From an uncultured delta proteobacterium (lineage in GTDB: Bacteria > Desulfobacterota > Binatia > Binatales > Binataceae), in contig CAWAKE010000009.1 in assembly GCA_963782535.1 (NCBI GenBank), positions 246,222-310,221 of the forward strand: a stretch of 64,000 nucleotides of DNA. Reading direction: 5' to 3'. The translations under genes and the position numbers were made by a program. Numbering within the stretch: position 1 is the first letter of the stretch; each line of letters starts with the position of its first letter. Of this stretch, positions 43,479 to 60,370 are shown piece by piece. The notes under the pieces are model-generated. The model was not told the origin of the DNA. It was given only the letters and a program-made list of their open reading frames with translations, and did no database searches.

Positions 43479-44707
43479 ATGAATCGAACTCAAGCAGAAA
43501 ACGAAAAGAGGCCGCCGGCTGATGAAGCGCGTCTGGCCGGCCGGCTTCTGATCGAGCGGGCAATAGGACTCGCTGCGGGATTGCGCGAAAGATCCGACGA
43601 AGGCACCCGCCTTCGCCGCCTGCCCGATGGAAGCTGGAATGCGTTGCTCGATTCGGGCGTGCTACGAGGGCTGCAACCGTCCCGCTGGGGCGGGGGGAAA
43701 CAAATCTCCGCGACTTTTTTACCGCGGTTTCGGAGGTCGCAAGAGCCGACGGTTCCGCCGGTTGGGTGGCCGGAATTGTCGGCGTGCATCCATGGCAACT
43801 CGCATTTTTCCCAATCGAAACCCAACAGGAAGTTTGGGGCGGCGATCCGACCGTGATGCACTCCTCGTCCTATGCCCCTACCGGGCGAGCGGAAAAGGTC
43901 AGCGGTGGATATCGGCTGAATGGGCGCTGGTCCTTTTCGACCGGTTGCGATCACTGCCAATGGGTCAATCTCGGCGCGGTCACCGGCCCAATCGAAATCG
44001 ACGGAACCCCGGTCCAGGATTTTCGCTCGTTTATGCTGCCGCGTCGCGATTATAAAATCGACGACAACTGGCGCGTCGCCGGACTCTGCGGCACCGGCAG
44101 CAAGGATATCGTGGTAGAAAATGCGTTCGTGCCTGCACACCGCAGCCAATCGCATTGGGACTACATGCTGGGACGCGAAATGCCGGGATGGGAGTTCAAT
44201 CCGGCGCCGCTCTATCGCTTGCCGTTCGCGGCAGTTTTCAATTACGCGCTGTCCGCCTCCGTCCTCGGCGCCACGCGCGGATTCCTCGATGCCTGGATTG
44301 AGAGCACCCGGCCCCGCAAACTGGGTCTCGGCGGAATAGCCAGTGAAGATCCCTTCATCCAGAAGCTCCTCTCCGAAGCCGATTACGCGATTGACGCGGG
44401 CATGCTCAAGCTCCGCCGCGACTGCGACGAGTTGATGGACGCGGGCCGCGCGAGCGTCAGCCTCTCCCTGCAACGCCGCGCGGCAATTCGCTACAACGCC
44501 TGCCGCTCGGCGCAATTGGCCGCTCGCGCAATCGACCGCCTGTTTGAGTCGAGTACCGGCAAAGCGATTTTCCTCGATCATCCGCTGCAGCGGCGCTACC
44601 AGGATATCAAGGCGATGCTCGGCCACGCTTACCTCACTGCCGACAGTCCTGCGCGCATGCACGGCGCCATCGCGCTTGGCCAACCGGTAGTCAATCCGAT
44701 GCTGTGA
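43479..44707 (+). pseudogene. ACAD-fold flavin-dependent monooxygenase (HsaA/DszC/HpaH-like), frameshifted
   Basis: N-terminal 70 aa (frame of 43479) read ..LPDGSWNALLDSGVLRGLQPSRWGGG. The continuation ETNLRDFFTAVSEVARADGSAGWVAGIVGVHPWQLAFF... to the C-terminus is in the +1 frame (track ORF 43766..44707). The break falls in the G6 run at about 43692-43697. One extra G would restore a single ~410-aa ORF. Confidence 0.6.
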
Positions 44708-45120
44708 GCGACCTCCGTTTGCGATCGCAAAGGCCGTGCGGCGTCTCCTCATAAGGTACGGCCAATAAGTGACGGCACACTCCGGACAGTGTCGATTTAC
44801 GCCCGTTCACCTTACCGAACCTGTGCTGCGGCCAAATCGGACCCCTTTGATTATCTCGCTGGCCGCCGTTTTTCGCAATCCGACGCTGGTCATTAGGGCG
44901 GCGCCTGCTCCTCGATGCGGCATCTGTCCGCCGATCCGCGCCTCCCTCTCCAAACCAGTCGCGGGTTCGCTGCGTCACCGGTAATCTTAGCGGAATTATG
45001 ATGACCGACTGGCTACGCTCGGAGCATCAGGGTAATCGTTGCACTGGCGGCCGTCGGGTTACTATTCGCAGTTAGGCCCAGGGCTGTGGCATCTCGCGCC
45101 CAGGCTGACGAGCTCGAAGA

Positions 45121-46743
45121 ATGAAGCGGGAAAGTGGAATGAATATCGGTGACGCGAACGCGGTGATTGCCGCTAACTTGAGTGGGCGCGGGCGTTTGAG
45201 TCGCGTAGCCGTGCCGCGTTGTCGGCGTTTACTCAGATCCATCGCGGTCACGGCAATACTTGTAATCGCATTAGTTGAACCCGTAAAAGTCCACGCGGCA
45301 ATCGACCTGTTAACTATCGCCGGTCAACCGGTAGTGCTGAGCGCAACCGAACAAAACCGCGAACAGGTCTGGAACTGGTTCCCTGCCACCGACCCGGCGC
45401 AGGGGCCGGATTACCAGAACCGCTATAACTTCATGGGTAGCTGGATTCGGGTCGGCCTCGGTTACCAACTCGACGGTATCAAAGCCTTCGCCGAACTGAT
45501 GAGCCCATTTCTTATAAACCTGCCGGACGATGCGATTGTCGCTCCGCCGCCGGGTAAGGTCGGACCGCAAGGGCTGCTAGGTCTCGGCGCCAACTACTAT
45601 CAACCGCATCAGAATCCGAACGACGCCAGCGTCTTTCTCAAGCAGGCCTACCTCGAATTCGGACGCAACCTGATGCCCGGCTTCAATTTCAAGGGCGGCC
45701 GCTTCGAATTATTCGACGGGCTCGAATACCTGCCTGCGGAACTCAACCCGCAGCTCAGGTGGCTGGCCACCAACCGCATCGCACAGCGGCTGATCGGTAA
45801 TTTCGGCTTCAGTGACATCATGCGATCGTTTGACGGTGCGGTCGCAACCTACGGTAACGATACGTGGCAGGCGACCGTTATGTACGGTGTCCCGACCAAG
45901 GGCGTGTTCGACCTCAACGCCATGGAAGAGGTGCGCAATATGGACGTGGCCTATGCGTCGCTCAACGCTGGGCCGAGCGCTTTTCAATCCGATCTGTGGG
46001 GCGATTCTATCGGCCGGTTCTTCTATATCTATTACAACGACAGTCGCGGGCTGGCGCTGGTGGATAATCGCAGCCTGAGCGCAACGGCGGCTACGGGACC
46101 CGTCTCGATTGACACGGTGGGCGCGGATTACGCTCGCACGCTGACCGTGGGTCCGGGCAGCGCAGACTTTCTATTGTGGGGCGCAGGACAGTTCGGGTCC
46201 TGGGGTGCGCTCAGCCAGCGCGCCTACGCGATGGTGGCTGAGACCGGATATCGGTTTACCCATGCGCCCTGGAAGCCATGGCTACGCCTTGGTTACACCA
46301 TCGGTTCAGGCGACGGTAACAACCATGACTCGACCCACGCCACCTTCTTTCAGATTCTTCCCACCGCCCGGATTTACGCGATGACACCGATTTACAATAT
46401 GATGAATATCAACGACGCTATGGCGCAGTTGATGCTCGACCCGCTCACGAATCTCCAGATCCAAAGTGCGCTCCATGGATTGTGGCTCGACGCCAAAAAG
46501 GATCGCTGGTACGCGGGCGGAGGCGCTTTCGACAACCGAATCTTTGGTTATGCTGCGCGGCCCAGCAATGGTTACGGCTATCTCGGCACCCTGGCGGATT
46601 GTCAGATGACGTGGAAGGCTAACTCGCACTTTGCGTTGCAGCTTTACTACGGTCACGTCTTTGGTGGCAGTGTAGTCGGCAGTATCTATCCCGCGGGCCG
46701 CGAGTCTGACTACGGCTTTATTCAGACAACGTGGTCCCTCTAG
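45121..46743 (+). CDS. putative outer-membrane beta-barrel protein (alginate-export/DUF1302-like)
   Basis: N-terminal signal-like hydrophobic segment (LLRSIAVTAILVIALVEPVKVHAA), Gly/Tyr/Asn-rich alternating amphipathic strands throughout, aromatic C-terminal residue (..TTWSL). Family assignment is by general resemblance only. Confidence 0.45.
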   Translation: MKRESGMNIGDANAVIAANLSGRGRLSRVAVPRCRRLLRSIAVTAILVIALVEPVKVHAAIDLLTIAGQPVVLSATEQNREQVWNWFPATDPAQGPDYQNRYNFMGSWIRVGLGYQLDGIKAFAELMSPFLINLPDDAIVAPPPGKVGPQGLLGLGANYYQPHQNPNDASVFLKQAYLEFGRNLMPGFNFKGGRFELFDGLEYLPAELNPQLRWLATNRIAQRLIGNFGFSDIMRSFDGAVATYGNDTWQATVMYGVPTKGVFDLNAMEEVRNMDVAYASLNAGPSAFQSDLWGDSIGRFFYIYYNDSRGLALVDNRSLSATAATGPVSIDTVGADYARTLTVGPGSADFLLWGAGQFGSWGALSQRAYAMVAETGYRFTHAPWKPWLRLGYTIGSGDGNNHDSTHATFFQILPTARIYAMTPIYNMMNINDAMAQLMLDPLTNLQIQSALHGLWLDAKKDRWYAGGGAFDNRIFGYAARPSNGYGYLGTLADCQMTWKANSHFALQLYYGHVFGGSVVGSIYPAGRESDYGFIQTTWSL

Positions 46744-46914
46744 CAAGGCGATGAACGCGGTTCCGAGTAGTATGAACGATCGCCTCACTCTGTATCATGG
46801 TTCGATGTGCGAATGGGCTGATGATGGCTGGACACCGGCTCAAGTGAAGTCCGAGTGCGAATTTGAGCATGAATAATCAGCGACCATGCAAGTCGTCTGC
46901 GAGATGGATTAATT

Positions 46915-47523
46915 ATGGCCAAACATAAGCATGGCGAACACGGCGGCGACGATCGGCATGGCGCACGGCAACCCGAGCGGTTCGATCCTGCCCGCGCGGC
47001 GCTGCTCGACGATCCTGCGCGCTTCGAATATTTGCCGCCGGACGAAGTATTCGCGCTGTCGGCAGCGCCGGCCGGTGGCCGCGTTGTGGATTTCGGCACC
47101 GGAACGGGAGCCTATGCAATCGAGCTTGCCAAGCGGCGGCCCGACCTTGAGGTGATTGCGCTCGACGAACAGGCGCAGATGCTCGATCTGCTGCGGGCGA
47201 AGCCAGCGGCGATAAAGCTCGCAAATCTCAGTCCGGTTCACACTGCCGAAATCGCGCGGCTGCGCGGCACCGCCGATCGGGTGCTCGCGCTCAACGTATT
47301 GCACGAGGTCGGCGATGAGGCCTTGCTTGCGCTGGCGGCTCTGCTCAAGCCCGATGGCGCGGCGCTCATCGCTGACTGGAACGCCGGCGTCGAGCGCGCG
47401 GTGGGTCCGCCGCCAGACCATGTATACACGGTCGCGGAAGCCTGTGAGCGGATCCAGCGCGCCGGCCCCCGCATCGAGAGCGAGCACATGTTGAAATATC
47501 ATTACGCACTGATCGCGCGTTAG
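46915..47523 (+). CDS. class I SAM-dependent methyltransferase (small, His-rich N-terminus)
   Basis: Motif I VVDFGTGTGAYAIELA, acidic post-I residue (ALDE), motif II/III region. N-terminus MAKHKHGEHGGDDRHG. No conserved Cys triad, so not a canonical ArsM. Confidence 0.7.
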   Translation: MAKHKHGEHGGDDRHGARQPERFDPARAALLDDPARFEYLPPDEVFALSAAPAGGRVVDFGTGTGAYAIELAKRRPDLEVIALDEQAQMLDLLRAKPAAIKLANLSPVHTAEIARLRGTADRVLALNVLHEVGDEALLALAALLKPDGAALIADWNAGVERAVGPPPDHVYTVAEACERIQRAGPRIESEHMLKYHYALIAR

Positions 47524-47681
47524 CAGTTTCAACGTTGGCCCGACCGCGGGGGACCCGGAGCGGCTCGAAGCGATGGCGATGAGCCATCGTGCGCGGAGAG
47601 GCCGGCGAAATGCCCTTCCCCGCGCAGAATCGTCGGGCTCGCCCGGGCCGGCCCGAAGCGGAAAATGCGACTGATTCCCGA

Positions 47682-48212
47682 TCAGCAGCATGCTCCCGGT
47701 TTGCGCGGTTGCGCGGTATCGTGTGAGGCCGCGGGCACGCAGCAGGGCGCGTCTGAGGCTTCGGCGGCGGAGCTTTTACGATTGTGAAGCGGGATGCAAC
47801 AAGGCTCACCGTCAGAGCGCCTCATGCTCGTATCGTTGCCAAAGATTGGCACTTCGCCGAGAGTCTGAAAGTTCTCCCAAGCAAGGCCCTGCGGGTCGAG
47901 CACCCAATATTTGTTTCCCTTGGCGTAGCAACATTCGACCTCGGTCTCTTTTAAAGCCGCGGCCCCGCTCGCCTGCTCGGCGCGCATACTCAGTTCCGCG
48001 AGTTCCGCCGAATCCTCGGCCTGAAATCCCAAGTGATTGAGGCCGGGTTGGTGACCGCGCGCTGAAATCGCAAAATTTATGCGCGGCTCCTCCAGCATCC
48101 ACTTGGCATAATCGGCTCGCACAACCGTCGGCTGGATGCCGAACAAATCGGTATAGAACTTGATACTTACTTCCAGATTTTCCACTGCAACGTGAACATG
48201 AAAGCGTTTCAT
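47682..48212 (-). CDS. ArsI/CadI-family VOC (glyoxalase-fold) metalloenzyme
   Basis: Glyoxalase-like betaalphabetabetabeta start (MKRFHVHVAVENLEVSIKFYTDLFG), vicinal cysteine pair ..ETEVECCYAKG.. at about residues 94-95, and a C-terminal tail with three more Cys pairs (EPCCIPLH, APCCVPAAS, GACC). Confidence 0.6.
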   Translation of the reverse strand: MKRFHVHVAVENLEVSIKFYTDLFGIQPTVVRADYAKWMLEEPRINFAISARGHQPGLNHLGFQAEDSAELAELSMRAEQASGAAALKETEVECCYAKGNKYWVLDPQGLAWENFQTLGEVPIFGNDTSMRRSDGEPCCIPLHNRKSSAAEASDAPCCVPAASHDTAQPRKPGACC

Positions 48213-48593
48213 AGAGGCCTCCTCATTCTTGTTTAAAGAAATCTTGCGACAGGCTCGCCGGATGCCGCCGATTGCTTAACTCGCTCGAGCTTCAAGCTTG
48301 ACTGACGCTACTTATAATTCTATAAATATAAAACTATAGAGATGTCAAGCGGGCGACCTGCAGCCGTCGCCGAAATCCGCGGCCGACGCTCAACCTGGGA
48401 CCTCTCAATACCGAAGTGTAGGGAATCCAGGCGTGGACAGTTCGTTTAGTGGTCCCACTTTGCGAGGTAAGCGAGTTTTCGTGAATCAGAGGTTAACGCA
48501 GCGTTACGTCTTGGTTTGTTTTCGGTTGAATCACGCGAACGCAAGCCTTCGAAGATTGATTTCATCAAGGCATAACTCTAGACAGGTAGAACT

Positions 48594-48974
48594 ATGAGGA
48601 AATCGAATGTCATCTCGGGGTTGAGTGCCTTAGCTCAGGAAACCCGTCTCGATATCTTCCGGCTGCTGGTGACGAGAGGGCCCGAGGGACTGCCGGCGGG
48701 TGAAATCGGCATGCGTCTTGGACAGCCCTCGCCCACGCTTTCGTTTCATTTGAATCAGCTCAGGTTCGCTGGGCTCGTGACTTCACGCCGTGAGAGCCGC
48801 TCAATTCTTTACAGCGCAAACTTCAAGGCGATGAACGATTTACTCGCTTATCTGACGGAAAACTGCTGTGGTGGACGCTCGGACTTGTGCGCTCTCGATG
48901 CGTCCGCAACTCGCGAATCAATTCCGGCCTCGATAAAAGCCACGCGTGGCAATAGGACCGACGGTAAAAAATAG
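48594..48974 (+). CDS. arsR: ArsR/SmtB-family metalloregulator
   Basis: LAQETRLDIFRLLV...EIGMRLGQPSPTLSFHLNQLRFAGLV winged-HTH core plus C-terminal Cys cluster ENCCGGRSDLC (type-2 As(III)-binding site arrangement). Divergent from the VOC gene, upstream of acr3. Confidence 0.8.
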   Translation: MRKSNVISGLSALAQETRLDIFRLLVTRGPEGLPAGEIGMRLGQPSPTLSFHLNQLRFAGLVTSRRESRSILYSANFKAMNDLLAYLTENCCGGRSDLCALDASATRESIPASIKATRGNRTDGKK

Positions 48975-49230
48975 GAGAGGGCTCAATGGCCCGTCGCGAA
49001 TTAAACTACCGGTATCGACGATGCAAAGCGCAAATTCTTTTCCCGCATCTATTCGGAACTGGAGAATCGCATAAAAATCATTGCCAGCTTGCCGATCGAT
49101 GCCCTCGACCGCCAGAAGCTGGAGAATCATGCACGCGAGATTGGCAAGGTGAAGCTTCCGAGTAAGGAAGAACGTTGAACACGCCCGTTCGCGATTTGAT
49201 AATGTCCCAACCCGCACCCAGGAGAATACC

Positions 49231-50370
49231 ATGAGCGCGATTCCGGCGAAGCCGGATACTCACATCATGAGGCGGTTGTCGTTTCTCGACCGCTACCTGA
49301 CGCTTTGGATATTTTTTGCGATGGCGCTGGGAGTCGCGATGGGAAATATCCGGCCCGGCGTGAAAGGAGCATTCGATCGACTGACTATCGGAACGACATC
49401 CGTACCGATTGCGATCGGGCTGATCTTGATGATGTATCCGCCGCTGGCAAAAGTAAATTACGACGAACTCGGCGACGTGTTTCGGAACTGGAAGATTCTG
49501 GGCCTATCGCTGGTGCAGAACTGGATCATCGGTCCCGTCCTGATGTTCGCGCTCGCAGTGATCTTTCTGCGCGACCGCCCCGAGTACATGATCGGTCTCA
49601 TCATGATCGGTATCGCGCGCTGTATCGCGATGGTGATCGTGTGGAACGACCTGGCCGATGGCGACGCCGAATATTGCGCCGGATTGGTGGCCTTCAACTC
49701 AATTTTTCAAGTGCTCTTCTATTCGGTCTATGCCTTTGTCCTGATTACTGTTGTCCCGCGGTGGTTCGGGCTTGCCGGTTCGGTCGTGCACATCACGATC
49801 GGTCAAATTGCCGAAAGCGTGGCGATCTACCTCGGGATGCCTTTTGTAGCGGGATTCGCTACATGGAAGGTGCTTACCCATCGCAAGGGTAAGCTCTGGT
49901 ATCGAGAACATTTTATTCCGAAGGTGAGTCCGCTCACCTTGATTTTTCTTCTATTCACTATTGCTGTGATGTTTTCGATCAAGGGTGCTGCGATCCTTCA
50001 ACTGCCGCTCGACGTTGTACGAATCGCGGTACCGTTGCTGCTCTATTTCGCGATCATGTTCGGCGTCTCTTTCATACTGAGCATGAAGGCGGGCGCGACT
50101 TATCCGCAGACGGCTACGCTCTCATTCACTGCCGCATCCAATAATTTTGAACTCGCGATCGCGGTCGCGGTGGCGACCTTCGGCATCGACAGTGGGGCCG
50201 CCTTCGCCGCTGTCATAGGGCCATTGATCGAAGTTCCGGTAATGATCGGATTAGTTGACGTAGCGCTGTGGGCGCGGCGCAGATATTTCGCCGATTCGAC
50301 GGCCACGATCTCCGCGGCGGAATGTTGCAACACGGCGGTCGAAAGCGCCCGCCGCAACCGGCGGATATGA
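49231..50370 (+). CDS. acr3: ACR3-family arsenite efflux permease
   Basis: [21 protein letters not shown] hallmark, conserved TM4 cysteine in [17 protein letters not shown], 10 TM helices, 379 aa. Confidence 0.9.
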
Positions 50371-50434
50371 GTATTCAGGTTGGTTCGCAGCCCTTATGCT
50401 GGACAACCGCGGCGTGTCGCATTACTGCTAGCTC

Positions 50435-50728
50435 ATGGCCATCGACAAGCACGAGTACATAGCCGCTTATGAATCGCACCACGTAGGTTATCTCGAGAGC
50501 TTCGGCGATTACGAAATGGCCGCGCAGTTCCTTCATGGCTGGACCACTGACGTGCATACGTGGCCGATCTGCATCTACGACAGTGCCGACAACCACTTAT
50601 GGCTATGGTGTGGATATAGGACGCTTGATATCAGCCGCGAATCGGCACTCGAAGACGCCCGCGCAATTCTCCGGCTCGGAGCAGATCATCAATTCAGCAA
50701 GATCGAAACAATGGCCGAGAATTTGTGA
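50435..50728 (+). CDS. hypothetical protein (orphan, lower GC)
   Basis: 97-aa ORF MAIDKHEYIAAYESHHVGYLESFGDYEMAAQFLHGWTTDVHTWPICIYDS... No recognisable domain. Lies between acr3 and the IS5 left end. Confidence 0.3.
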   Translation: MAIDKHEYIAAYESHHVGYLESFGDYEMAAQFLHGWTTDVHTWPICIYDSADNHLWLWCGYRTLDISRESALEDARAILRLGADHQFSKIETMAENL

Positions 50729-50759
50729 GCGATGACGATCAAGGGATAGCCGGCGTTAG

Positions 50760-51932
50760 GGAGCCTCTGCACAGGTCGTCATACAGCGGCAGTTCGACAT
50801 AGTAATGAGGATTATGAGGAGGAACGGCAGCAGCGCGCTGGGGTGATCGCTGCTGAGAAGCCATCAGGAGCATTGGTTGCCTCTGGTTCTTGTTCACAAC
50901 CCACACCAGGCCCCGGCTGGGAGCAACCGATGCCGGAGTTGGTAGAGATTGGCCAGCGCGAACATGGTTTCGGCCCGAGCCAGATTCTTGGCCAGCCCGC
51001 GATATCTAACCTTGCTGAAGCCCCACAACTGCTTGAGTACGCGGAAGGCATGCTCGCCGCAAGCGCGGGTGCGCGAACGCACCCGGTTGATCATCCGCCA
51101 GCGCTTGCTCAACGGCCGCTGCGCGGTAGGACGGCGATTGATCCGATAATGTATTCCCCGCGATTCAAGGAAGCTGCGGTCATCTTCCTTCCAATACGCC
51201 TGGTCGCCGAACACCTCGCGCTCGTACCCGTGCAAAAGCTCCGGCAGTTGGGTGACATCGGCGACCGCGGCGTCGGTCGCGGTTACGCTGTGCACGATGC
51301 CACGCTGGTCAGCCCCGATGTGCAGTTTCATCCCGAAGTGCCAGTTCTGGCCCTTACGAGTCTGCTTCATCTCGGGGTCGCGCGTCCCACTGGCGTTCTT
51401 GGTGGAACTCGGCGCCGCGATGATGGTCGCGTCCACAATCGTCCCCGAGCGCAGCAACAGGCCGCGGGTCTCGAGCAGACCGCCGATCGCGGCGAAGATT
51501 GCCTTGGTCAAATTGTGCTTCTCGAGCAGATGACGAAAACGCAGAATCGTGGTCTCATCCGGCACCGTGTCCTCGCCCAGCTCCACCTTGGCAAACCGAC
51601 GCATCGACTCACTGTCGTAGATCGCGTCCTCGGCCTGCGGGTCGGAGAGATTGAACCATTGTTGCAGGAAGTAGATGCGCAGCATCTTCTCCAGCCCCAG
51701 TGGCTGGCGCCCGTTGCCGGCTTTGGGGTAATGAGGCTCGATCAGGCGCAAAAGCCGCGCCCACGGAATCACCGCATCCATCTCGCCCAGGAATCGCTCG
51801 CGCCGGGTAACTTTGCCTTTCCCATTCCATGCCATCGATGCGAACGTCCGCTGATTCCCCATCACCGCACCTCCACTCCTGCCGCTCCCACTTATGATTT
51901 ATACCAAACCGAAACACTTGTGCAGAGGTTCC
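50760..51932 (-). mobile_element. IS5-family insertion sequence (IS5 group), intact, with 4-bp TTAG target-site duplication
   Basis: Imperfect terminal inverted repeats GGAGCCTCTGCACAGGTCGT (left, from ~50760) and GGAACCTCTGCACAAGTGTT (right, reverse complement, ending ~51932), 16 of 20 identical. Flanked by TTAG at 50756-50759 and 51933-51936. Encloses one transposase ORF. Confidence 0.8.
50894..51865 (-). CDS. IS5-family DDE transposase
   Basis: 323 aa with the IS5 signature KQTRKGQNWHFGMKLHIGADQRGIVHSVTATDAAVADVTQ...GDQAYW (DDE triad region). Confidence 0.9.
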   Translation of the reverse strand: MMGNQRTFASMAWNGKGKVTRRERFLGEMDAVIPWARLLRLIEPHYPKAGNGRQPLGLEKMLRIYFLQQWFNLSDPQAEDAIYDSESMRRFAKVELGEDTVPDETTILRFRHLLEKHNLTKAIFAAIGGLLETRGLLLRSGTIVDATIIAAPSSTKNASGTRDPEMKQTRKGQNWHFGMKLHIGADQRGIVHSVTATDAAVADVTQLPELLHGYEREVFGDQAYWKEDDRSFLESRGIHYRINRRPTAQRPLSKRWRMINRVRSRTRACGEHAFRVLKQLWGFSKVRYRGLAKNLARAETMFALANLYQLRHRLLPAGAWCGL

Positions 51933-51943
51933 TTAGTGATTGA

Positions 51944-53506
51944 CTAGGAGTCCGTCCGAGAAATTTCGCCGGTTAAGTTGATCTCCGGATTGGAGCGATT
52001 GGCTATTGATGATGCCGGTCGCCCCAGGATCCTGCGAAGCGCCGGCTGGTCGGCTGGCGACTACAAAGAGGTGCGCGTTTTGCTGCGGTATTTCTCGTGA
52101 CCGCCTGGATGACGGTTACGCATTGCAGAGCCGGTGCAACTTCAAAATGTTGTGGGTGAGACAGACCAGCGCCCACTCGCCCCGGACTTTAGCCAAGCCG
52201 CGCAAAAGAAAGCGGCGAAACCCGCGGGCCTCTTTGATCTGGCCGAAGACCGGCTCCACGATCGTTTTCCGTGTCACATAGATTGCCCGCCCCACCTTAG
52301 TCTGAAGCTTGCGTTTCATGCGGTCGACCCGCGTCGCATTGCGCGGTAACGGTCCGCGCGAGCAGGGCTGGCGGTATTCGTCATGCTTCTGCTTGCCAGT
52401 CGCGATATAGCAATCGATCGGGTCTCCAGACTGACCGAGAGCCGCCAGATACGCGAGGTTCTTCTCCGAGCAATAGCCACTGTCGGCCACGAGGCCGGTG
52501 GGTCGCTGTCCGCTCTGTTGCTCGATCACCTGGACCATCGGTTCGATTTGCTGTTTATCGTTGGCTGCCGGCGTCACGCTCTGCCCCACGATTAACTGCA
52601 ACACCGGCTCCACTGCCGCCTGCGCATTGTAGCCTTGCACCAGACCGTCGCTGCCCTGCATCAGGCGCGACTCCGGGTCGGTGAAATTGTATTGATCTTT
52701 GTCCGCGGGCTTCGCCGATTGCACTTCTGCGCGCGGCTTTCCGGCCTTCTCCGCCGACTGCCGCGCCCGCTCTTCCAGCGCCCGTTGCGCCGCGCGAATC
52801 TTCCTTAGCCGGCTCTCGCGCCGCTGCAACTCTGCGGGTAGCTCGTCGCCCCGCCGATCGGCCCCGTAGTGCGCGTCTTCGGCGGCGTCCACCGCCTCGG
52901 CCTGGGCCAGCAGTTCCCGGACCTCTGCGCGCAGTTGCCGTTGCCGCTCCTGCATCCGGCCATAGCTCATCGCTTTGTGCTTGCTGGCGTTGGCTTTCAG
53001 CTTGGTGCCGTCCAACGCCACCCGCCCCAGTTTCAGCGCTCCCGCTTCCAGCGCGATCTTCAGCACCTCTTCAAACAGCCCGGCCAGCGTCGCCAGATGG
53101 AGCTTGCGAAAATCTGCGATGGTACGGAAGTTCGGCGCGTTGCCCGCCGCCAGCACGCGAAACCCCACGTCCTCGATTAAACGCCGCTCGATGCGCCGCG
53201 AGCTAAATACCCCCACGCAATACCCATACACCAGCACCTTGGTCATCATCCGCGGATCGTAGGGCGGCTGCCCGCGTTGCTCGTCCCCATACGCCGCATC
53301 CAGCGCCGATAGGTTCAGATTGTCGACCACATCGCTGACGAAGTAGACCAGATGATTCTCGGGCAACCATTCACGCAGGCTCGGGGGAAGCAGAAACTCT
53401 TGATCCGGATGGTACGGTCGGTAGCTCTTACCCATGCCTAATTATCTACTACTCACACCCCGTTTTCTTCCTCAGTCAAATAACTATTTCTCGGACACGC
53501 TCCTAG
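51944..53506 (-). mobile_element. IS1182-family insertion sequence
   Basis: 21-bp imperfect IRs CTAGGAGTCCGTCCGAGAAAT (51944-51964) and CTAGGAGCGTGTCCGAGAAAT (reverse complement of 53486-53506), 18 of 21 identical. Encloses one 439-aa transposase gene. Begins 7 bp from the IS5 right-hand TSD. Confidence 0.7.
52116..53435 (-). CDS. IS1182-family transposase
   Basis: MGKSYRPYHPDQEFLLPPSLREWLPENHLVYFVSD N-terminus characteristic of IS1182-family transposases. Coiled-coil middle and C-terminal DDE domain (DSGYCSEKNL). Confidence 0.85.
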   Translation of the reverse strand: MGKSYRPYHPDQEFLLPPSLREWLPENHLVYFVSDVVDNLNLSALDAAYGDEQRGQPPYDPRMMTKVLVYGYCVGVFSSRRIERRLIEDVGFRVLAAGNAPNFRTIADFRKLHLATLAGLFEEVLKIALEAGALKLGRVALDGTKLKANASKHKAMSYGRMQERQRQLRAEVRELLAQAEAVDAAEDAHYGADRRGDELPAELQRRESRLRKIRAAQRALEERARQSAEKAGKPRAEVQSAKPADKDQYNFTDPESRLMQGSDGLVQGYNAQAAVEPVLQLIVGQSVTPAANDKQQIEPMVQVIEQQSGQRPTGLVADSGYCSEKNLAYLAALGQSGDPIDCYIATGKQKHDEYRQPCSRGPLPRNATRVDRMKRKLQTKVGRAIYVTRKTIVEPVFGQIKEARGFRRFLLRGLAKVRGEWALVCLTHNILKLHRLCNA

Positions 53507-53594
53507 GCCCCCGACGCGCTGTGCATCGGGGGCCTACCTCACGTGATTTCAACAACGTTCGCGATAGTAAGTCGGAAGAATTCAGATGGCGGCT

Positions 53595-54713
53595 TCAGGC
53601 GGCCACATGAGCCGTCATCGTGAGATCCGCGGGCTCCTGCAAGGGCTCGGTCTTCCAGCTCTTGACTTCGGGCATCACGTGTTTGACGAAGCATTTCAAG
53701 TTTCGCTCGGCTTCGTCGTATGGCATGCCGGCGTAGCTGAAGTTGAGCATGAAGCCGTTCGCGTCGATGGTCTCGCGGATCGTAGAGAGCTTCTCGATCA
53801 CCTGGCCCGGGGTCCCCCACGGCATCAATTTCGCAAAGTCGGCGGCCGCACCATCGATTCCGTGCTTAGCGATAAACTTGCCGACCTGACTATAGAATTC
53901 ATAACCCTTCTGACTGCCGAATTTGGACGAGGTCATTTCATAATGTTTAATCACCGTCCGGTATTGTGCGGATAGCCACTTCATCGCCTGCTCTTCGGCG
54001 CGGTCCTTGTTCTCATCGACAAACACGAAGCCTCCGCTCAGCGGTTTCGGCGCCGGTGTGGCTCCGTTAACTTCGCGCCACACGCGATGGTAGTTTTCGA
54101 AATCGACCTTTACGGCCTCCCACGGCTTCTGGGGAATGACCAGCAGACCGACGCCAAGCTTGGCCATGATCGGCATCGATTCTGGCGATACCGCGGCGGC
54201 ATAGGTGCGGCCTTTGAAGGACTTAAAAGGAAAGGGCCGAATTTCGCGGCGCGGCTGCTTGGTGTAGGCGCCGCCTTCCATGTAACCGGTTTCGAGGGCT
54301 CGCGTGATCAGCTGTGCATATTCGACGAAGAGATTCCGCCCTTCGTTTTGATCGAGGCGAAAGCCATCGTACTCGATTGGCGCAAGTCCGCGGCCGATCC
54401 CGAAGAGAAAGCGGCCGTCTGATACATGGTCGAGCATTGAGGCCTGCTCGGCGACACGAATCGGGTCATGCCAGGGGAGGACCACGACCATCGAGCCGAG
54501 CTTCACATGCTTGGTTCGCCCTGCCATGTAAGTCAGAAATTGAACGGGATCGGGACACATTGTGTAATCATCAAAATGATGTTCAATCGACCAGACGGAA
54601 TCGAAACCCAAGGGCTCGGCCATCTCGGCGAGTCGGATTTCATTGCGCCAGACCTCGCGGTCGGAGAGTTGATTATTGGGGTTTTGAAAGACTAATCCAT
54701 AACCGACGTGCAT
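53595..54713 (-). CDS. LLM-class flavin-dependent oxidoreductase
   Basis: Trimmed to MHVGYGLVFQNP; FDSVWSIEHHFDDYTMCPDPVQFL, KLGSMVVVLPWHDPIRVAEQASMLDHVSDGRFLFGIGRG. Confidence 0.8.
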   Translation of the reverse strand: MHVGYGLVFQNPNNQLSDREVWRNEIRLAEMAEPLGFDSVWSIEHHFDDYTMCPDPVQFLTYMAGRTKHVKLGSMVVVLPWHDPIRVAEQASMLDHVSDGRFLFGIGRGLAPIEYDGFRLDQNEGRNLFVEYAQLITRALETGYMEGGAYTKQPRREIRPFPFKSFKGRTYAAAVSPESMPIMAKLGVGLLVIPQKPWEAVKVDFENYHRVWREVNGATPAPKPLSGGFVFVDENKDRAEEQAMKWLSAQYRTVIKHYEMTSSKFGSQKGYEFYSQVGKFIAKHGIDGAAADFAKLMPWGTPGQVIEKLSTIRETIDANGFMLNFSYAGMPYDEAERNLKCFVKHVMPEVKSWKTEPLQEPADLTMTAHVAA

Positions 54714-54798
54714 AGTAGCCTCCTCGGGGGCAGAATTTTCCACGAAAGTTGACCGCACTCGCCACCGACAAATCTCTCAGGTTTTTATCGTCGCCATA

Positions 54799-55656
54799 TC
54801 AGAAACGGGCCTTCGGTACCGGAAGTCCCGCGATTTCCGAGCGCGCACGAAAGACGGTGCCCTTGAGATCGCGATTCTCAGTATTGTTTGCGGTAACCAC
54901 ATAGAGATCGCACATATCCGGACCGCCAAACGCGAGGCTCGTCACGGTTCGCGCTGGGATCTTGATTCGTTGGTCGAGCGTGCCGTTGCTTTTGAAGCGG
55001 ACTACTTCACCGGGACCGGCGACGACCGCAACCCAGACCCCGCCTTCCGCGTCAATCGTCAATCCATCCGGCATACCCTCGGGCAGCCGCGCAAATACGC
55101 GGCGATCACTGACGGTACGGTCCGGACGTACGTCATGCACCCAAATCGCGCGCGTGGTTGAATCGCTATGATAAAGCAGCTTGCGATCGCGGCTGAATCC
55201 AAGGCCATTAGTCACTTCCACGCCTTCCCACAATTTGGTGACTTTTCCCGGCGGATCGATCCGGAAAAGTGAACCGGGCGGAGGGGTGCTCTTGAAGTCG
55301 AACTGGTTAATGTCGCAGCCGAAGGTTCCACTCCATATACTACCTTGGTCGTCGACAGTTAGGTCATTCATGCCGAAGAGTGGTTTTCCCTCCCACTGCG
55401 CAAACAAATCGGTGATGCGTCCGCTTTTCTCATCCCAATGCGCCAGTGTCGCTCCGGTGACGATCAATCCGCCCGAAGCGTTCAAGGCGATACCGCCCAC
55501 GGACTTGCGTCCCGGTATCAGAGTTTCAATCGCGCCATCGGGACTGCGCCGGAAAACGCCACCACCGCGTATGTCGCTATAGTAAAGGCGATTTTGCTCA
55601 TCGGTCCGCGGTCCTTCGAGTAGGCCGTAGCCGGTTGCCAAGGTTTCGAATTGCAT
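54799..55656 (-). CDS. SMP-30/gluconolactonase/LRE-family six-bladed beta-propeller hydrolase
   Basis: 285 aa. EGP..D...LYYSD opening, repeated ..DG.L.. blades, PDGLTIDAEGGVWVA. Confidence 0.8.
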   Translation of the reverse strand: MQFETLATGYGLLEGPRTDEQNRLYYSDIRGGGVFRRSPDGAIETLIPGRKSVGGIALNASGGLIVTGATLAHWDEKSGRITDLFAQWEGKPLFGMNDLTVDDQGSIWSGTFGCDINQFDFKSTPPPGSLFRIDPPGKVTKLWEGVEVTNGLGFSRDRKLLYHSDSTTRAIWVHDVRPDRTVSDRRVFARLPEGMPDGLTIDAEGGVWVAVVAGPGEVVRFKSNGTLDQRIKIPARTVTSLAFGGPDMCDLYVVTANNTENRDLKGTVFRARSEIAGLPVPKARF

Positions 55657-56095
55657 AGGCCTGTTCCTTTACGCCGTCGCTAAAACTATGATTCCTGATC
55701 GGGCAAGACTCGCGATGTCGAGATCTTGCGGTACACCCCCAACGACGCCGCGAGCGAAGCCGCAGCGAGTACGCAATCTTCAATCCGTTCCGCGGGGCCG
55801 GTCACCAGCGAACCCGCGGAGTCGCCACCATAATTGTCCGAAACTTACCGCTGTTGCATTATTGACTGCAAACGGTATTGGAGACTGGGCAAAGGTGGGG
55901 ATGGGGAACCGACCCTGCGCACGCGATACGCGATATCCTTGGCGCTGGCTGTTGCGCCAATAGGGTGGTAATCAGTCACATGTCGAACCGATCGCTCGGC
56001 CCGCAATTTGGACGGAGGCTAACGGGTGGAATGGGGTTAAGCCTATTCATCGCGAATGCTCGATTGGCGCGGCGATTTAACAATGGGAGAGCAAA

Positions 56096-56881
56096 ATGAC
56101 GGAATCGAAATATGGCGACGTGTCGGTCGAGGTCAAGAACTATGTAGCGTGCGTCGAGATTCATCGGCCGCCGCACAATTTTTTCGATGTTCAACTCATC
56201 CGCGACCTCGCCACTGCGTTCAACGCGCTGGATGAGGATGCGGCGTGTCGGGCCTCTGTCCTGTGTGCTGAGGGCAAGTCATTTTGCGCAGGCGCCAATT
56301 TCGCGAATCGCAACGCTACCGGCGTCGAACCCGGCGTCGAAAAGCGCAACCCGCTCTATTCCGAAGCGGTGCGTCTGTTTGCCTGCAAGAAACCTATAGT
56401 CGGTGCAATTCAAGGTGCGGCGATCGGCGGCGGCCTCGGACTCGCGCTGGTTCCCGACTTTCGCGTTGCAGCTCCGGAGGCGCGCTTCGCCGCGAACTTT
56501 GTCAAAATTGGCTTCCATCCGGGATTCGGCCTCACTTATATCCTGCCGCGACTGATCGGCGTCCAGAAAGCCAACCTGATGTTTCTTACGGGCCGGCGCA
56601 TTTCGGGCGAGGAGGCTTTTGCATGGGGACTCGCCGATATGCTGGTCCCGGCCGATCGGCTGCGTGCGACAGCGATGGAACTCGCGGCCGAAATCGCGGA
56701 AAATGCGCCTCTGGCAGTGGTTTCAACTCGCACGACTGGCCGTCGCGGACTCAGTGAAGCAGTACAGGCACAGACCGATCTCGAGTTCGTCGAGCAAGAT
56801 CGGCTGATGCGTACCGAGGACCATCGCGAGGGAATCAAAGCCGTCGCCGAACGTCGTCCCGGACGCTTCGTTGGTAAGTGA
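56096..56881 (+). CDS. enoyl-CoA hydratase/isomerase family protein
   Basis: EIHRPPHNFF, SFCAGANFAN, AIQGAAIGGGLGLALVPDFRV crotonase motifs. Confidence 0.8.
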   Translation: MTESKYGDVSVEVKNYVACVEIHRPPHNFFDVQLIRDLATAFNALDEDAACRASVLCAEGKSFCAGANFANRNATGVEPGVEKRNPLYSEAVRLFACKKPIVGAIQGAAIGGGLGLALVPDFRVAAPEARFAANFVKIGFHPGFGLTYILPRLIGVQKANLMFLTGRRISGEEAFAWGLADMLVPADRLRATAMELAAEIAENAPLAVVSTRTTGRRGLSEAVQAQTDLEFVEQDRLMRTEDHREGIKAVAERRPGRFVGK

Positions 56882-56952
56882 CAGGCGCGCAGACAGAATC
56901 GAAGATTCAACCGGACTCATAACGCCGACACGGCGCAAGCAGGAATCGAGCA

Positions 56953-58119
56953 ATGACGAAGGTGCAGGTAGACGGCAAGTGCGACGCGCGTTTTGAGCGC
57001 ATGCGCGAGGCGTTCGTCCGGAATTTCGTCAGCCGTGGCGACGTTGGCGCCGCGGTCGCCGTGACCATCGATGGCAAAATGGCCGTTGACCTGTGGGGCG
57101 GCCACGCCGACAAAGAGCGCACGCGGCCTTGGCGGCGTGACACGATTGTGAATGTCTATTCGGCGACCAAGGGTGTTGCCGCAACCTGTTTCAATCGACT
57201 CGTCGATCAAGGTCGAGTCGATCTTGACGCACCGGTTGCGACCTATTGGCCGGAATTCGCGCAGGCCGGAAAAGAGACTATTCCAGTACGGTGGCTGTTG
57301 AGTCATCGCGCGGGCTTGCCTGCAATACGAAAAACACTGCCCTCGGATGCATTACTCAGTTGGGACATGATGACAACGGCGCTGGCGGAACAGGCACCAT
57401 GGTGGGAACCCGGCACCAGACACGGATATCACGCGCTGACCTTTGGCTATCTGGTGGGCGAGGTGGTGCGCCGGGTGAGCGGAAGGAGTCTTGGCCAGTA
57501 CTGTCGCGAGGAAATCAGCGGTCCGTTGGCGATTGACTTTCATATCGGTCTCGATGCGAGCGATGACGCGCGTTGCGCCGAGGTAATCGCGGCGCTACCA
57601 CCGCTGGCCGGAGTATCGAATCCGCTCAACGATGCGGTGACGAGCGATCCCGAGTCGATGCCGGCGAAGGCGTTGAACAATCCGGTGGGCGCGTTGAAGC
57701 TGAGTATGATCAATTCGCCAGCCTGGCGTCGCGCGGAGATTCCAGCGGCCAATGGCCACACCAACGCCCGGGCGCTCGCACGCTTTTATGGAGCGCTGGC
57801 GTGCGGCGGCGAGCTGGATGGCGTACGCATACTGAGTCCGGTCCAGGTCGAGCGGTGTTACGCGGAGGAAGCGAGCGGTATCGATGCCGTACTGTCAGTG
57901 CCGATGCGCTTTGGTCTCGGCTACCGGCTGACCCAGCCCGCGGCTCCATACGGACCGAATCCGCACACCTTCGGCCACACGGGCGCAGGCGGTTCACTTG
58001 GGTTCGCCGATCCCGACGCACGCATCGGGTTTGCTTACACGATGAATCAAATGGGATCGCAGATACTGCTCGACTCACGGGTTTCCGTACTCCTCGACGC
58101 GCTGTATTCGGCGGTATAG
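56953..58119 (+). CDS. serine hydrolase, beta-lactamase/esterase (EstB-like) family
   Basis: SxxK nucleophile motif SATKGV, later YHA and HTGAGGS elements of class-C-like serine hydrolases. 388 aa. Confidence 0.75.
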   Translation: MTKVQVDGKCDARFERMREAFVRNFVSRGDVGAAVAVTIDGKMAVDLWGGHADKERTRPWRRDTIVNVYSATKGVAATCFNRLVDQGRVDLDAPVATYWPEFAQAGKETIPVRWLLSHRAGLPAIRKTLPSDALLSWDMMTTALAEQAPWWEPGTRHGYHALTFGYLVGEVVRRVSGRSLGQYCREEISGPLAIDFHIGLDASDDARCAEVIAALPPLAGVSNPLNDAVTSDPESMPAKALNNPVGALKLSMINSPAWRRAEIPAANGHTNARALARFYGALACGGELDGVRILSPVQVERCYAEEASGIDAVLSVPMRFGLGYRLTQPAAPYGPNPHTFGHTGAGGSLGFADPDARIGFAYTMNQMGSQILLDSRVSVLLDALYSAV

Positions 58120-58178
58120 CAGGAGGTTGCAATAGCCAGTCGCGGATTGCGCAGAGCCGATCATTCAAAGTGCTTCTG

Positions 58179-59189
58179 CTAATTTGTCAGGGCGGAGCGC
58201 GTGACCTTCGCAAGTTTGACTATTGTGCGCAGGGGCCGGGAAGTATCTTTTCTCGGAAACCACAGTTCGGCGGTCACGGATACTTCACCGACATAAATGT
58301 CGCCGGCGGAATCCACTGCGATGCCGTGAGGAGCGATCATCTGGTTCGGTCCATCGCCTTGCGCATTGTCGAGCAGATTCGCTCTGAGTTTTCCGTCTAG
58401 ACTATAGATGCTAATTCGCGGTCCGCAGGCGGGTTGATTGCAAATCTCCCAAAGCTCTTTCGCGTTTTGACACCACCAAGCCGAGGATAGCTCGCCGATG
58501 TAACAGGTTTGCGAGCCGCGGGTGTCGATGTACATACCACACGGACGGGCCATTCCGGTCCATATATCTTCGAGTTTGCCGTTCGGAGTAAATATCTGGA
58601 CACGCTGGTTCTCGCGATCTGCAACGTAAACGTATCCGTCGCGGTCGGTGGCTATATTGTGCGGGAGATTGAATTGCCCTGGGCGATTTCCCGGCTCTCC
58701 CCATGAATTGAGCAATCGCCCGTCGGGAGTGTACTTGTGCACGCTGGCGTTGCCGTAGCCGTCGGAGACGAATAACTCTCCACTGACAGGGTGAATCGCG
58801 AGGTGAGTACATCGGCAGAAGGGCAGGCCGCTCATGCTCCTGGCGGGTTTGCCGCTGGTGCCAAGCGTCAGCAGGACCTTGCCGTCGGGGGTGCATTTTC
58901 TGACTGTGTGGTCCAGCGTATCGGTCAGCCAAATGGAGTCGTCAGGGCCGACCGTCACCGCGTGCGCGTTGGGAAACATGGATTTGTCGCCCCAGGAGCG
59001 GACGAATTCACCGTGGCGATCCAACACGATCACGGGACGCTTGCCGCGATTGAATAAATATACGTGTCCCCTGGAATCCACGCCCACGCCGGCTACGTCG
59101 GAGGTCCCGTCGATGCCGGTTGCGCCCGACATGCCCCAGCCTTCCACGATTTCGTAGGTGTATTCGTCGTTGCCAGTCAGTATTGACAT
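58179..59189 (-). CDS. NHL-repeat six-bladed beta-propeller protein
   Basis: Trimmed to MSILTGNDEYTYE. Repeated NHL-like units (..PHGIAVDSAGDIYV.., ..PHNIATDRDGYVYVAD.., ..HAVTVGPDDSIWLTD..). Confidence 0.65.
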   Translation of the reverse strand: MSILTGNDEYTYEIVEGWGMSGATGIDGTSDVAGVGVDSRGHVYLFNRGKRPVIVLDRHGEFVRSWGDKSMFPNAHAVTVGPDDSIWLTDTLDHTVRKCTPDGKVLLTLGTSGKPARSMSGLPFCRCTHLAIHPVSGELFVSDGYGNASVHKYTPDGRLLNSWGEPGNRPGQFNLPHNIATDRDGYVYVADRENQRVQIFTPNGKLEDIWTGMARPCGMYIDTRGSQTCYIGELSSAWWCQNAKELWEICNQPACGPRISIYSLDGKLRANLLDNAQGDGPNQMIAPHGIAVDSAGDIYVGEVSVTAELWFPRKDTSRPLRTIVKLAKVTRSALTN

Positions 59190-59227
59190 CGCAGTTCTCC
59201 CGAGGAGGCAGTGATGCGGTTCATCAG

Positions 59228-60370
59228 TTACCACAGCTTTTGCGAGGCGAGTTTTGCGCCCTCTGACATCGATTTCAATTTCGCCCAAGTGATTGTCGGG
59301 TCAACCGGAGTATAGTTCGCAACCGTTGCAAACCCACAGTCGCTGCCAACGATCACGTTTTCGCGGCCCACCACGCCGGCGAGATTACAAATACGCTGGG
59401 CGATGAGTTCCGGATGCTCGATGTAGTTATTGGTGGAGTCGATTACCCCCGGTATCAAGATTTTTCCGGCGGGCAGTTTGACGTCTCTGAACACCGCCCA
59501 TTCGTGTTCGTGGCGGGGGTTGGCGCCCTCGTACGAGATGCCCGCCGCATGAGCTTTGAACACGATATCGATGATGTCGCGGATGGGAATGTCGCGGTGG
59601 TGCGGCCCTTCGTAGTTTCCCCAGCACAGATGGATGCGGACGCGGTCTTCTGGAATATCGGCGAGCGCATGATTGAGCGCTTCGACGTGCATTTCGAGAT
59701 GCTTGCGAAACTCGGCTACAGTCGCGTCGGGAAATTGAATGTGACGCCCCATCGCGAAGTCCGGACAATCGACCTGGAGGATAAATCCGGCCTGATGGAT
59801 AGCATTATATTCGGCCTTCATCGCGTCGGCGAGCGCAGCCAGATAGGCTTCGTGAGTTTTGTAGTAGTGATTGCCTAAAAAGATCGAAATCACCCCCGGC
59901 GACGCCGCGCTGAGGAAGGCTTCGGCGGGGTTGAAATCGGCGACAGCGGCTTTGAGATTGGCGATATCCCGGCTGACGGCGCCGTGTTCCCGATAGGTAA
60001 TCGCCTCAGTGCACGCGGGTCGTTTGAGGGTCTCGAGCACGCCTTGACGGGCGAAGCGCTCGCCAAATTCCGGGTAATCTGCGATGTCGCCGATGGCCAT
60101 CACGTCCGCTTCGCCCTGAAACCCGGTCAGGCGATCCTTGACGTAGGTGGCATAGGAGGGCTTGCTGGCCTCGCCGTCATTGACGATATCGACCCCAGCG
60201 TCGATTTGCTGACGCACGACCTCGGTGACGGCCGAACGAACGCGTGCGTCGAGCCGCGCGACGTCGGCTTGCTGACAACTCTCGGCGGCTGCGAAAAGCG
60301 GAAGCAAATCGTTCGGTCGCGGCAGGCTTCCGGTATGGGTAGTGAGGATGCGTTCGGTGCTGCGTTTCAT
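59228..60370 (-). CDS. cobalamin-independent methionine-synthase (MetE C-terminal domain)-like protein
   Basis: TTHTGSLPRP opening and Zn-ligand-like His/Cys/Glu pattern (..IHLCWGNYEG.., ..GSDCGF..) of the UroD/MetE TIM-barrel family. 380 aa, AAAGGAG RBS. Confidence 0.7.
   Translation of the reverse strand: MKRSTERILTTHTGSLPRPNDLLPLFAAAESCQQADVARLDARVRSAVTEVVRQQIDAGVDIVNDGEASKPSYATYVKDRLTGFQGEADVMAIGDIADYPEFGERFARQGVLETLKRPACTEAITYREHGAVSRDIANLKAAVADFNPAEAFLSAASPGVISIFLGNHYYKTHEAYLAALADAMKAEYNAIHQAGFILQVDCPDFAMGRHIQFPDATVAEFRKHLEMHVEALNHALADIPEDRVRIHLCWGNYEGPHHRDIPIRDIIDIVFKAHAAGISYEGANPRHEHEWAVFRDVKLPAGKILIPGVIDSTNNYIEHPELIAQRICNLAGVVGRENVIVGSDCGFATVANYTPVDPTITWAKLKSMSEGAKLASQKLW

Follow-up and report, generated by a model that had tools for sequence, protein, structure and literature searches.

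Evidence for a complete IS5-group insertion sequence at a TTAG target between convergent genes of an uncultured delta proteobacterium

Introduction

The locus studied here raises the question of what kind of mobile element has entered the space between two convergent host genes, where exactly that element begins and ends, and whether it arrived on its own. The locus belongs to an uncultured delta proteobacterium (Binataceae; assembly GCA_963782535.1), and by "the window" we mean the whole stretch of DNA that was analysed, which is 64 kb long (positions 246,222 to 310,221 of contig CAWAKE010000009.1). An earlier note, made from the sequence alone, had described an intact IS5-family element with a perfect TTAG target duplication, lying in a plastic locus between an orphan small open reading frame (ORF) and another insertion sequence (IS).

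Our answer is that this is almost certainly a complete, structurally intact element of the IS5 family and IS5 group, which carries a single-gene DDE transposase and was inserted at TTAG, a YTAR target, with duplication of 4 bp. The protein is already public under the label 'IS5 family transposase', and the element belongs to a thoroughly known kind. The details of the locus are set out below, starting with the ends of the element.

Ends of the element

The following features define the element and its immediate borders:

50756-50759, no strand: left TTAG, one copy of the 4-bp target-site duplication, YTAR class (window sequence)
50760-51932, minus strand: body of the IS5-group element, 1173 bp (sequence, repeat search, end comparison)
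50760-50779, no strand: transposase-distal terminal inverted repeat, GGAGCCTCTGCACAGGTCGT (16/20 against the opposite end)
51913-51932, no strand: transposase-proximal terminal inverted repeat, reverse complement GGAACCTCTGCACAAGTGTT (repeat search, end comparison)
51933-51936, no strand: right TTAG, the other copy of the 4-bp target-site duplication (window sequence and comparison with contig L093)

Read along the window, the order is ...GCCGGCG, TTAG, GGAGCCTCTGCACAGGTCGT ... ACACTTGTGCAGAGGTTCC, TTAG, TGATTGA.... The inverted repeats of the two ends are identical at 16 of 20 positions and differ at the other four, and the match stops there. For any one given pair of sites, agreement at 16 or more of the 20 bases would arise by chance with a probability of 3.9e-7, and the pair was also picked up by an independent repeat search of the window. 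The direct repeat is exactly 4 bp long, since the next outward base fails to continue it on either side. Both the 16/20 terminal repeats and the TTAG on each side, as given in the earlier note, are confirmed in the sequence; the interval 50756-51936 that it gave for the element comprises the element together with both copies of the duplication.

The GC content is 60.6% for the element and 59.7% for the window. There is one copy of the element within the 64-kb window (n=1), and the distal 20-nt inverted repeat likewise has its sole occurrence there when up to 3 mismatches are allowed.

Transposase and family assignment

The element contains one gene:

50894-51862, minus strand: transposase gene, 322 aa from ATG (ORF, Pfam, NCBIfam, alignment with InsH1)

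The ORF is indeed full length, as the earlier note had it: counted from an alternative GTG at 51865, the minus-strand frame 50894-51865 comprises 323 codons. A GGAGG at 51874-51870 is 7 nt upstream of the ATG at 51862 and 4 nt upstream of the GTG. Because of this spacing, and because a public gene call (P0222) of 322 aa is 100% identical over 322 residues, the ATG is the likelier start. This exact transposase (P0222) is on record from two contigs. A consensus scan found no sigma-70-like promoter upstream of the gene.

Several lines of evidence place the transposase in the IS5 group. Pfam recognises an N-terminal DUF772 domain (PF05598, 76 bits) followed by DDE_Tnp_1 (PF01609, 87 bits). The NCBIfam IS5 model NF033581 scores 327 bits against a curated cut-off of 140, whereas the transposase scores below the cut-offs of the NCBIfam models for IS1182 and for other IS5 subgroups (NF033578/79/80). 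Compared with InsH1, the transposase of E. coli IS5, the protein is 45% identical over its full length (319 aligned residues). We also aligned it with InsH1 (NC_000913.3) and seven diverse relatives, and across these nine sequences D144 (in VDATII), D220 (in GDQAY) and E270 (in RACGEHAFRVLK) are invariant, with the R(3)E(6)K pattern present around E270. The D-D-E residues are the catalytic triad of IS4/IS5-type DDE transposases. The assignment to the IS5 family and IS5 group that had been proposed from the sequence is thus borne out by the two Pfam domains, by NF033581, by the identity with InsH1 and by the invariant D, D and E.

The layout of the element agrees with this assignment, as a single ORF of 322/323 codons occupies the 1173 bp without a programmed frameshift, which fits the class of about 1.0-1.5 kb. 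The IS427 group, by comparison, has a two-ORF frameshift layout. Elements of the IS5/IS5 group make 4-bp repeats, and the duplication is 9 bp in the IS903 group and 2 bp in most IS427-group elements (PMC3281130). We considered the other IS5 groups (IS903, IS427, IS1031, ISL2 and ISH1) and rejected them, given that the duplication is exactly 4 bp, that there is a single ORF and that NF033578/79/80 remain below cut-off. The traits of the IS5 group found together in this element are the transposase model, the DDE residues, the single ORF, the imperfect inverted repeats, the 4-bp duplication and the YTAR target.

Annotated plasmids gave no megablast match to the DNA of the element, and the distant mode returned only IS5-family genes that are about 64-71% identical; in E. 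coli genomes, the matches were confined to short stretches of other IS5-like elements, and IS5 itself was not among them. No DNA copy more than 96% identical to the element was retrieved in the plasmid, genome and metagenome searches.

Boundaries and target preference in related copies

In a scan of one genome per species, 558 relatives were found. The closest in this genome scan, at 84-89% protein identity, are in metagenome-assembled genomes (MAGs) labelled Binataceae or 'delta proteobacterium'. Several of these MAGs are multi-copy, and CAWFIF01 has at least 12 loci.

We compared the ends of 26 complete copies in genome contigs, which are 78-84% identical to the window element in DNA and have both ends located. 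All 26 start with GGAA... and finish with ...TCC at the homologous base, with lengths of 1171-1196 bp; when the copies in contigs L090, L091 and L095 are added, the ends agree and the lengths span 1171-1202 bp. At the proximal end, the alignments of relatives begin at its position 1. No boundary is therefore shifted by other copies, and the ends assigned in the window are the same as in the 26 copies and the three further ones.

Every one of the 52 tetramers that flank the 26 copies is CTAG, TTAG or CTAA, all of which are YTAR, and the left and right flanks form an identical pair in 21 of the 26 copies. L095 (90% DNA identity) has CTAA on both sides and L090 (81%) has CTAG on both sides, while L091 (96%) ends at the same terminal base and then continues with CTAG in an unrelated context. 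IS5 has been reported to duplicate YTAR (PMC5009759), and the claim of a YTAR-type target, as preferred by the IS5 group, stands: the window copy and the related copies are flanked by CTAG, TTAG or CTAA only.

Two observations concern individual copies. In the CAWFIF01 MAG, the two flanks of L012, L015 and L020 are not identical, with TTAG to the left of the element and CTAG to its right; copies may have recombined, a point mutation may have arisen, or the first duplicated base may allow some looseness. In addition, a scan of JGI metagenomes for the exact distal 20-mer inverted repeat found two contigs, namely L090, which carries the 81% relative, and L089. In L089, positions 1104-1133 contain the exact distal 20-nt repeat and a few flanking bases, preceded by TAG, and no recognisable IS5-type sequence follows. 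The L089 site may represent a solo end or a MITE-like derivative; it may also belong to another element that shares this inverted repeat.

The insertion site and its host genes

Two features of the host DNA frame the insertion:

50435-50728, plus strand: conserved 97-aa gene upstream of the insertion (82 homologue clusters; synteny in relatives)
53504-53536, no strand: GC-rich hairpin between the convergent genes, part of the pre-insertion gap (sequence kept in L093 and L086-L088)

The element was inserted 27 bp past the stop codon of the 97-aa gene, in a gap of 130 bp between this gene, which is downstream of arsR-acr3, and a convergent luciferase-like monooxygenase gene. As the insertion is located after the stop codon and before the hairpin, coding sequence is intact. 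The insertion may nevertheless cut the arsR-acr3-97aa transcription unit off from its terminator.

The small ORF had been taken for an orphan, and this description does not hold: the gene is conserved and syntenic, its homologues fall into 82 clusters (58-100% identity), nearly all of them exactly 97 aa long, and its neighbourhood is kept in L083-L088 and L093. The 97-aa protein gave no Pfam or NCBIfam family match. Its labelled members come from Binataceae and 'Deltaproteobacteria' MAGs, and in several lineages they lie beside luciferase-like monooxygenase genes. For the luciferase-like protein of the window, taken from a GTG start, an exact look-up returned no match; public calls probably use a later start, giving 372 aa.

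The arms of the hairpin are TAGGCCCCCGACGC and GCATCGGGGGCCTA. The hairpin may be a terminator shared by the convergent genes; it is without a T-run and was not called by the terminator scan. The CTAG target of the neighbouring IS1182-family element overlaps the base of the hairpin, and the IS5-type insertion is 11 bp further upstream. The hairpin could have been a structural cue for insertion, or the gap could simply have been the sole non-coding DNA available.

Further upstream, the arsR gene and the gene for the ACR3 arsenite-efflux protein form a pair (48594-50370) that precedes the 97-aa gene both in the window and in L093; in L083 and L086-L088, a divergent luciferase-like gene is in the place of arsR-acr3. 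The GC content is 52.5% over 48001-50000, against 59.7% for the whole window. The low GC content and the presence of another gene there in the distant relatives suggest that the arsR-acr3 pair is an older acquisition at the same locus.

An empty site in a related contig

The 90% cluster of the 97-aa protein led us to L093, a 34.6-kb JGI contig whose genes are arranged as in the window: glyoxalase, arsR, acr3, the 97-aa gene, and then the convergent luciferase-like, SGL-family, enoyl-CoA hydratase and beta-lactamase-family genes. Its alignment covers 44439-50762 of the window at 89.3% identity and 53505-59458 at 91.9%, with nothing between. In the more distant relatives L086-L088, too, the hairpin and the convergent luciferase-like gene come straight after the 97-aa gene.

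Across both insertions, the window reads

GCCGGCG TTAG [IS5-type] TTAG TGATTGA CTAG [IS1182-type] CTAG GCCCCCGACG

and L093 reads

GCCGGCG ATAG TGATCGA AAAG GCCCCCGACG

L093 thus carries one tetramer, ATAG, at the position of the IS5-type insertion. The convergent genes are 130 bp apart in L093 and 2866 bp apart in the window, and 2866 - (1173+4) - (1555+4) = 130. Since these lengths balance, each of the two elements added its own length and exactly one 4-mer. The empty site that the earlier note had proposed to look for is therefore at hand, in a contig that is collinear on both sides, has no IS, retains one tetramer and has a gap that balances to the base.

It is important to emphasize that L093 offers an orthologous empty site rather than the exact sequence that the insertions entered, as it has diverged by about 10% and has YTAR at neither position. 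The pre-insertion sequence GCCGGCGTTAGTGATTGACTAG had no exact match in JGI metagenomes. The description of the transposition as recent is upheld in part, in a relative sense: it took place after the L093 lineage had split off, and the copy bears no sign of decay. That the locus is plastic is well supported, with two ISs 7 bp apart that are both absent from a relative that is about 90% identical.

Two short-read contigs from run ERR11571143 match the locus. L082, which matches the window on one side, breaks off 26 bp into the IS5-type element; L092, which matches the other side, breaks off about 25 bp into the IS1182-type element. Both insertions are thus present in the ERR11571143 sample, where they break the assembly as repeats do.

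The neighbouring IS1182-family element

On the far side of the right TTAG, two further features follow:

51937-51943, no strand: original intergenic DNA between the insertions, TGATTGA, 7 bp (matches TGATCGA in L093)
51944-53506, minus strand: IS1182-family element with its CTAG pair, separate from the IS5 element (inverted repeats, NCBIfam, L081 copy)

The body of this element occupies 51948-53502 (1555 bp), with CTAG at 51944-47 and 53503-06. Its transposase (52116-53435, 439 aa) scores 359 bits with the NCBIfam IS1182 model NF033551, above the cut-off of 270, and its inverted repeats (51944-51964/53486-53506) are 86% identical over 21 nt, a figure that includes the flanking CTAGs. The neighbour is thus another IS, as had been supposed, and its family follows from NF033551, the inverted repeats and the CTAG duplication. 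A copy identical at 1563 of 1563 positions is present in a different context in L081 (ENA ERZ25039495), where it also lies between CTAGs. The exact transposase is recorded from about 10 contigs, and 566 proteins belong to its 90% cluster. Of the two elements, the IS1182-family one at present appears the more clearly active.

A 4-bp repeat has been reported for ISPse1, an IS1182-family element (PMC3281130). It is conceivable that the duplication of the IS1182-family element is instead a 3-bp TAG, with one more base in each inverted repeat, as both known copies (in the window and in L081) sit between CTAGs. We keep to the 4-bp CTAG duplication for this element. Because the 7 bp between the duplications of the two elements is host DNA, they are neither nested nor did they arrive as a unit.

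An open frame antisense to the transposase gene

The codon-aligned frame antisense to the transposase is free of stops across the whole element (window 50760-51943, plus strand), and the ORF list includes an antisense ORF at 50843-51943 on the plus strand. Of 22 distinct related copies, about 16 keep this frame open over their whole length, although they are only 78-90% identical. The codons TTA, CTA and TCA are absent from the transposase gene, against about 3 expected from 40 host ORFs; only one of those 40 ORFs lacks them as well.

One might explain this pattern by a maintained overlapping gene, or by an element that purges TA-containing tetramers as self-targets. We consider these explanations very improbable. 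The frame is interrupted in five relatives whose transposase genes are intact, no Pfam family matches the antisense translation, and the equivalent frame of E. coli IS5 contains four stops. In view of these three observations, we prefer an ordinary GC-rich shadow ORF, which is far more likely than either an antisense gene or tetramer purging. A significant depletion of YTAR inside the element was also considered and rejected (1 observed versus 3.2 expected, P=0.17).

Mechanism, mobility and alternative explanations

In the mechanism that we propose, the transposase would recognise the two imperfect terminal inverted repeats (GGARCCTCTGCACARGT...) and cut the element out. The element would then be joined into a staggered 4-bp cut at a YTAR site, here TTAG, and repair of the gaps would leave TTAG on both sides. 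The landing site was the 130-bp gap between convergent host genes, so that no gene was broken, and the IS1182-family element inserted independently at CTAG, 7 bp away. Cut-and-paste chemistry is assumed here by analogy with IS5 and other DDE elements.

We infer that this copy is probably still mobile and that its insertion is selectively neutral. Activity is favoured by a gene that is intact and keeps its catalytic residues, by a good ribosome-binding site, by the perfect duplication and by the occurrence of the identical protein on a second contig; it is disfavoured by the one copy in the window and the lack of a recognisable sigma-70 promoter. These same traits bear on an alternative in which the copy is structurally complete but immobile, as a young fossil for which too little time has passed for decay. 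Besides the single copy in the window and the failure of the consensus scan to find a promoter-like site, the imperfect inverted repeats (16/20) and the fact that no other DNA copy more than 96% identical was retrieved would be expected of such a fossil. However, relatives with 1-3 inverted-repeat mismatches reach at least 10 copies in single MAGs, which indicates that imperfect repeats are no bar to spread. Given also that the ORF is intact with invariant D-D-E residues, that a good Shine-Dalgarno sequence precedes the ATG, that the duplication is perfect and that an identical protein exists on a second contig, we regard an immobile copy as unlikely.

To each of the other two alternatives we assign only a minimal chance. 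The flanking TTAGs might be the outermost bases of the element, as an extension of the inverted repeat with a palindromic TA core, or might match by chance. The inverted repeat does run three bases into the flanks (TAG/CTA), and most relatives are flanked by CTAG, which fits both readings: CTAG is its own reverse complement, so that such flanks cannot separate a duplication from an extended repeat. The decision therefore falls to non-palindromic pairs. TTAG/TTAG is a direct and not an inverted repeat, and, with the window included, six copies have direct pairs (TTAG/TTAG or CTAA/CTAA) versus one of the inverted type, from which we conclude that the flanks are a duplication. Moreover, CTAG, TTAG and CTAA vary among copies with identical ends, and L093 has one tetramer, with lengths that balance only if one 4-mer came with the element. 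The comparison of flanks in 26 copies and the L093 empty site together effectively refute the reading of TTAG as inverted repeat. It is similarly hard to maintain that the two neighbouring elements, of the IS5 group and the IS1182 family, came in jointly as a compound unit, even though they are 7 bp apart, have the same orientation and are both missing from L093. Each has its own inverted repeats and its own perfect 4-bp duplication (TTAG and CTAG), and the intervening 7 bp is host DNA that is also in the L093 empty site; on these grounds we rejected a compound transposon. In addition, the IS1182-family element occurs alone, 100% identical, in L081, relatives of the IS5-group element occur alone at many sites, and no other locus was seen in which both elements are joined by TGATTGA within a single outer duplication. 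We thus retain two separate insertions, each with its own 4-bp duplication.

The annotation should show a mobile element with exact ends at 50760-51932 and no gene call for the long antisense ORF. The locus is a base-resolved case of two ISs that target YTAR/CTAG, 7 bp apart between convergent genes and with an empty-site relative, and it would be useful for strain typing or for surveys of IS activity in Binatia-like soil bacteria. The insertions also explain why short-read assemblies break here, with L082 and L092 ending about 23-27 bp inside the ISs. Beyond annotation, the significance is small.

Comparison with known systems

One point of comparison is E. coli IS5 (IS5A, InsH1; NC_000913.3 273955-275149), which is 1195 bp long, compared with 1173 bp here. 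In both elements a single transposase gene fills most of the length, the D, D, E and R(3)E(6)K positions are common to InsH1 and the window transposase, and a 4-bp YTAR duplication is likewise shared (PMC5009759). The ends begin with GGAAGG... in IS5 and with GGAACC... and GGAGCC... in the window element, and the inverted repeats differ beyond the first four bases. The two elements also differ in that their DNA is too diverged to align, that the antisense frame is open in the window element and has four stops in IS5, and that the host of the window element is an uncultured soil lineage, probably a Binatia-like bacterium to judge by how the nearest relatives are labelled.

ISPha2 and ISPmar3 were captured experimentally in Paracoccus (Alphaproteobacteria) and are elements of the IS5/IS5 group with a single ORF, a 4-bp direct repeat, imperfect inverted repeats (16/15 and 18/14, respectively) and lengths of 1282-1387 bp (PMC3281130). 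The window element is like them in its single ORF, imperfect repeats and 4-bp duplication, and is shorter.

The closest counterparts are the elements in Binatia and 'delta proteobacterium' MAGs (CAWFIF01, CAVTIS01 and CAWILO01; L001-L036) together with those in L091 and L095, which are 78-96% identical to the window element in nucleotides and 84-98% in protein. In most of the Binatia-type relatives, the stretch of about 130 bp from the stop codon to the distal repeat is poorly conserved, and the alignments stop near position 1039. These elements have the same ends, length and 4-bp YTAR flanks as the window element, and they are inserted at different sites.
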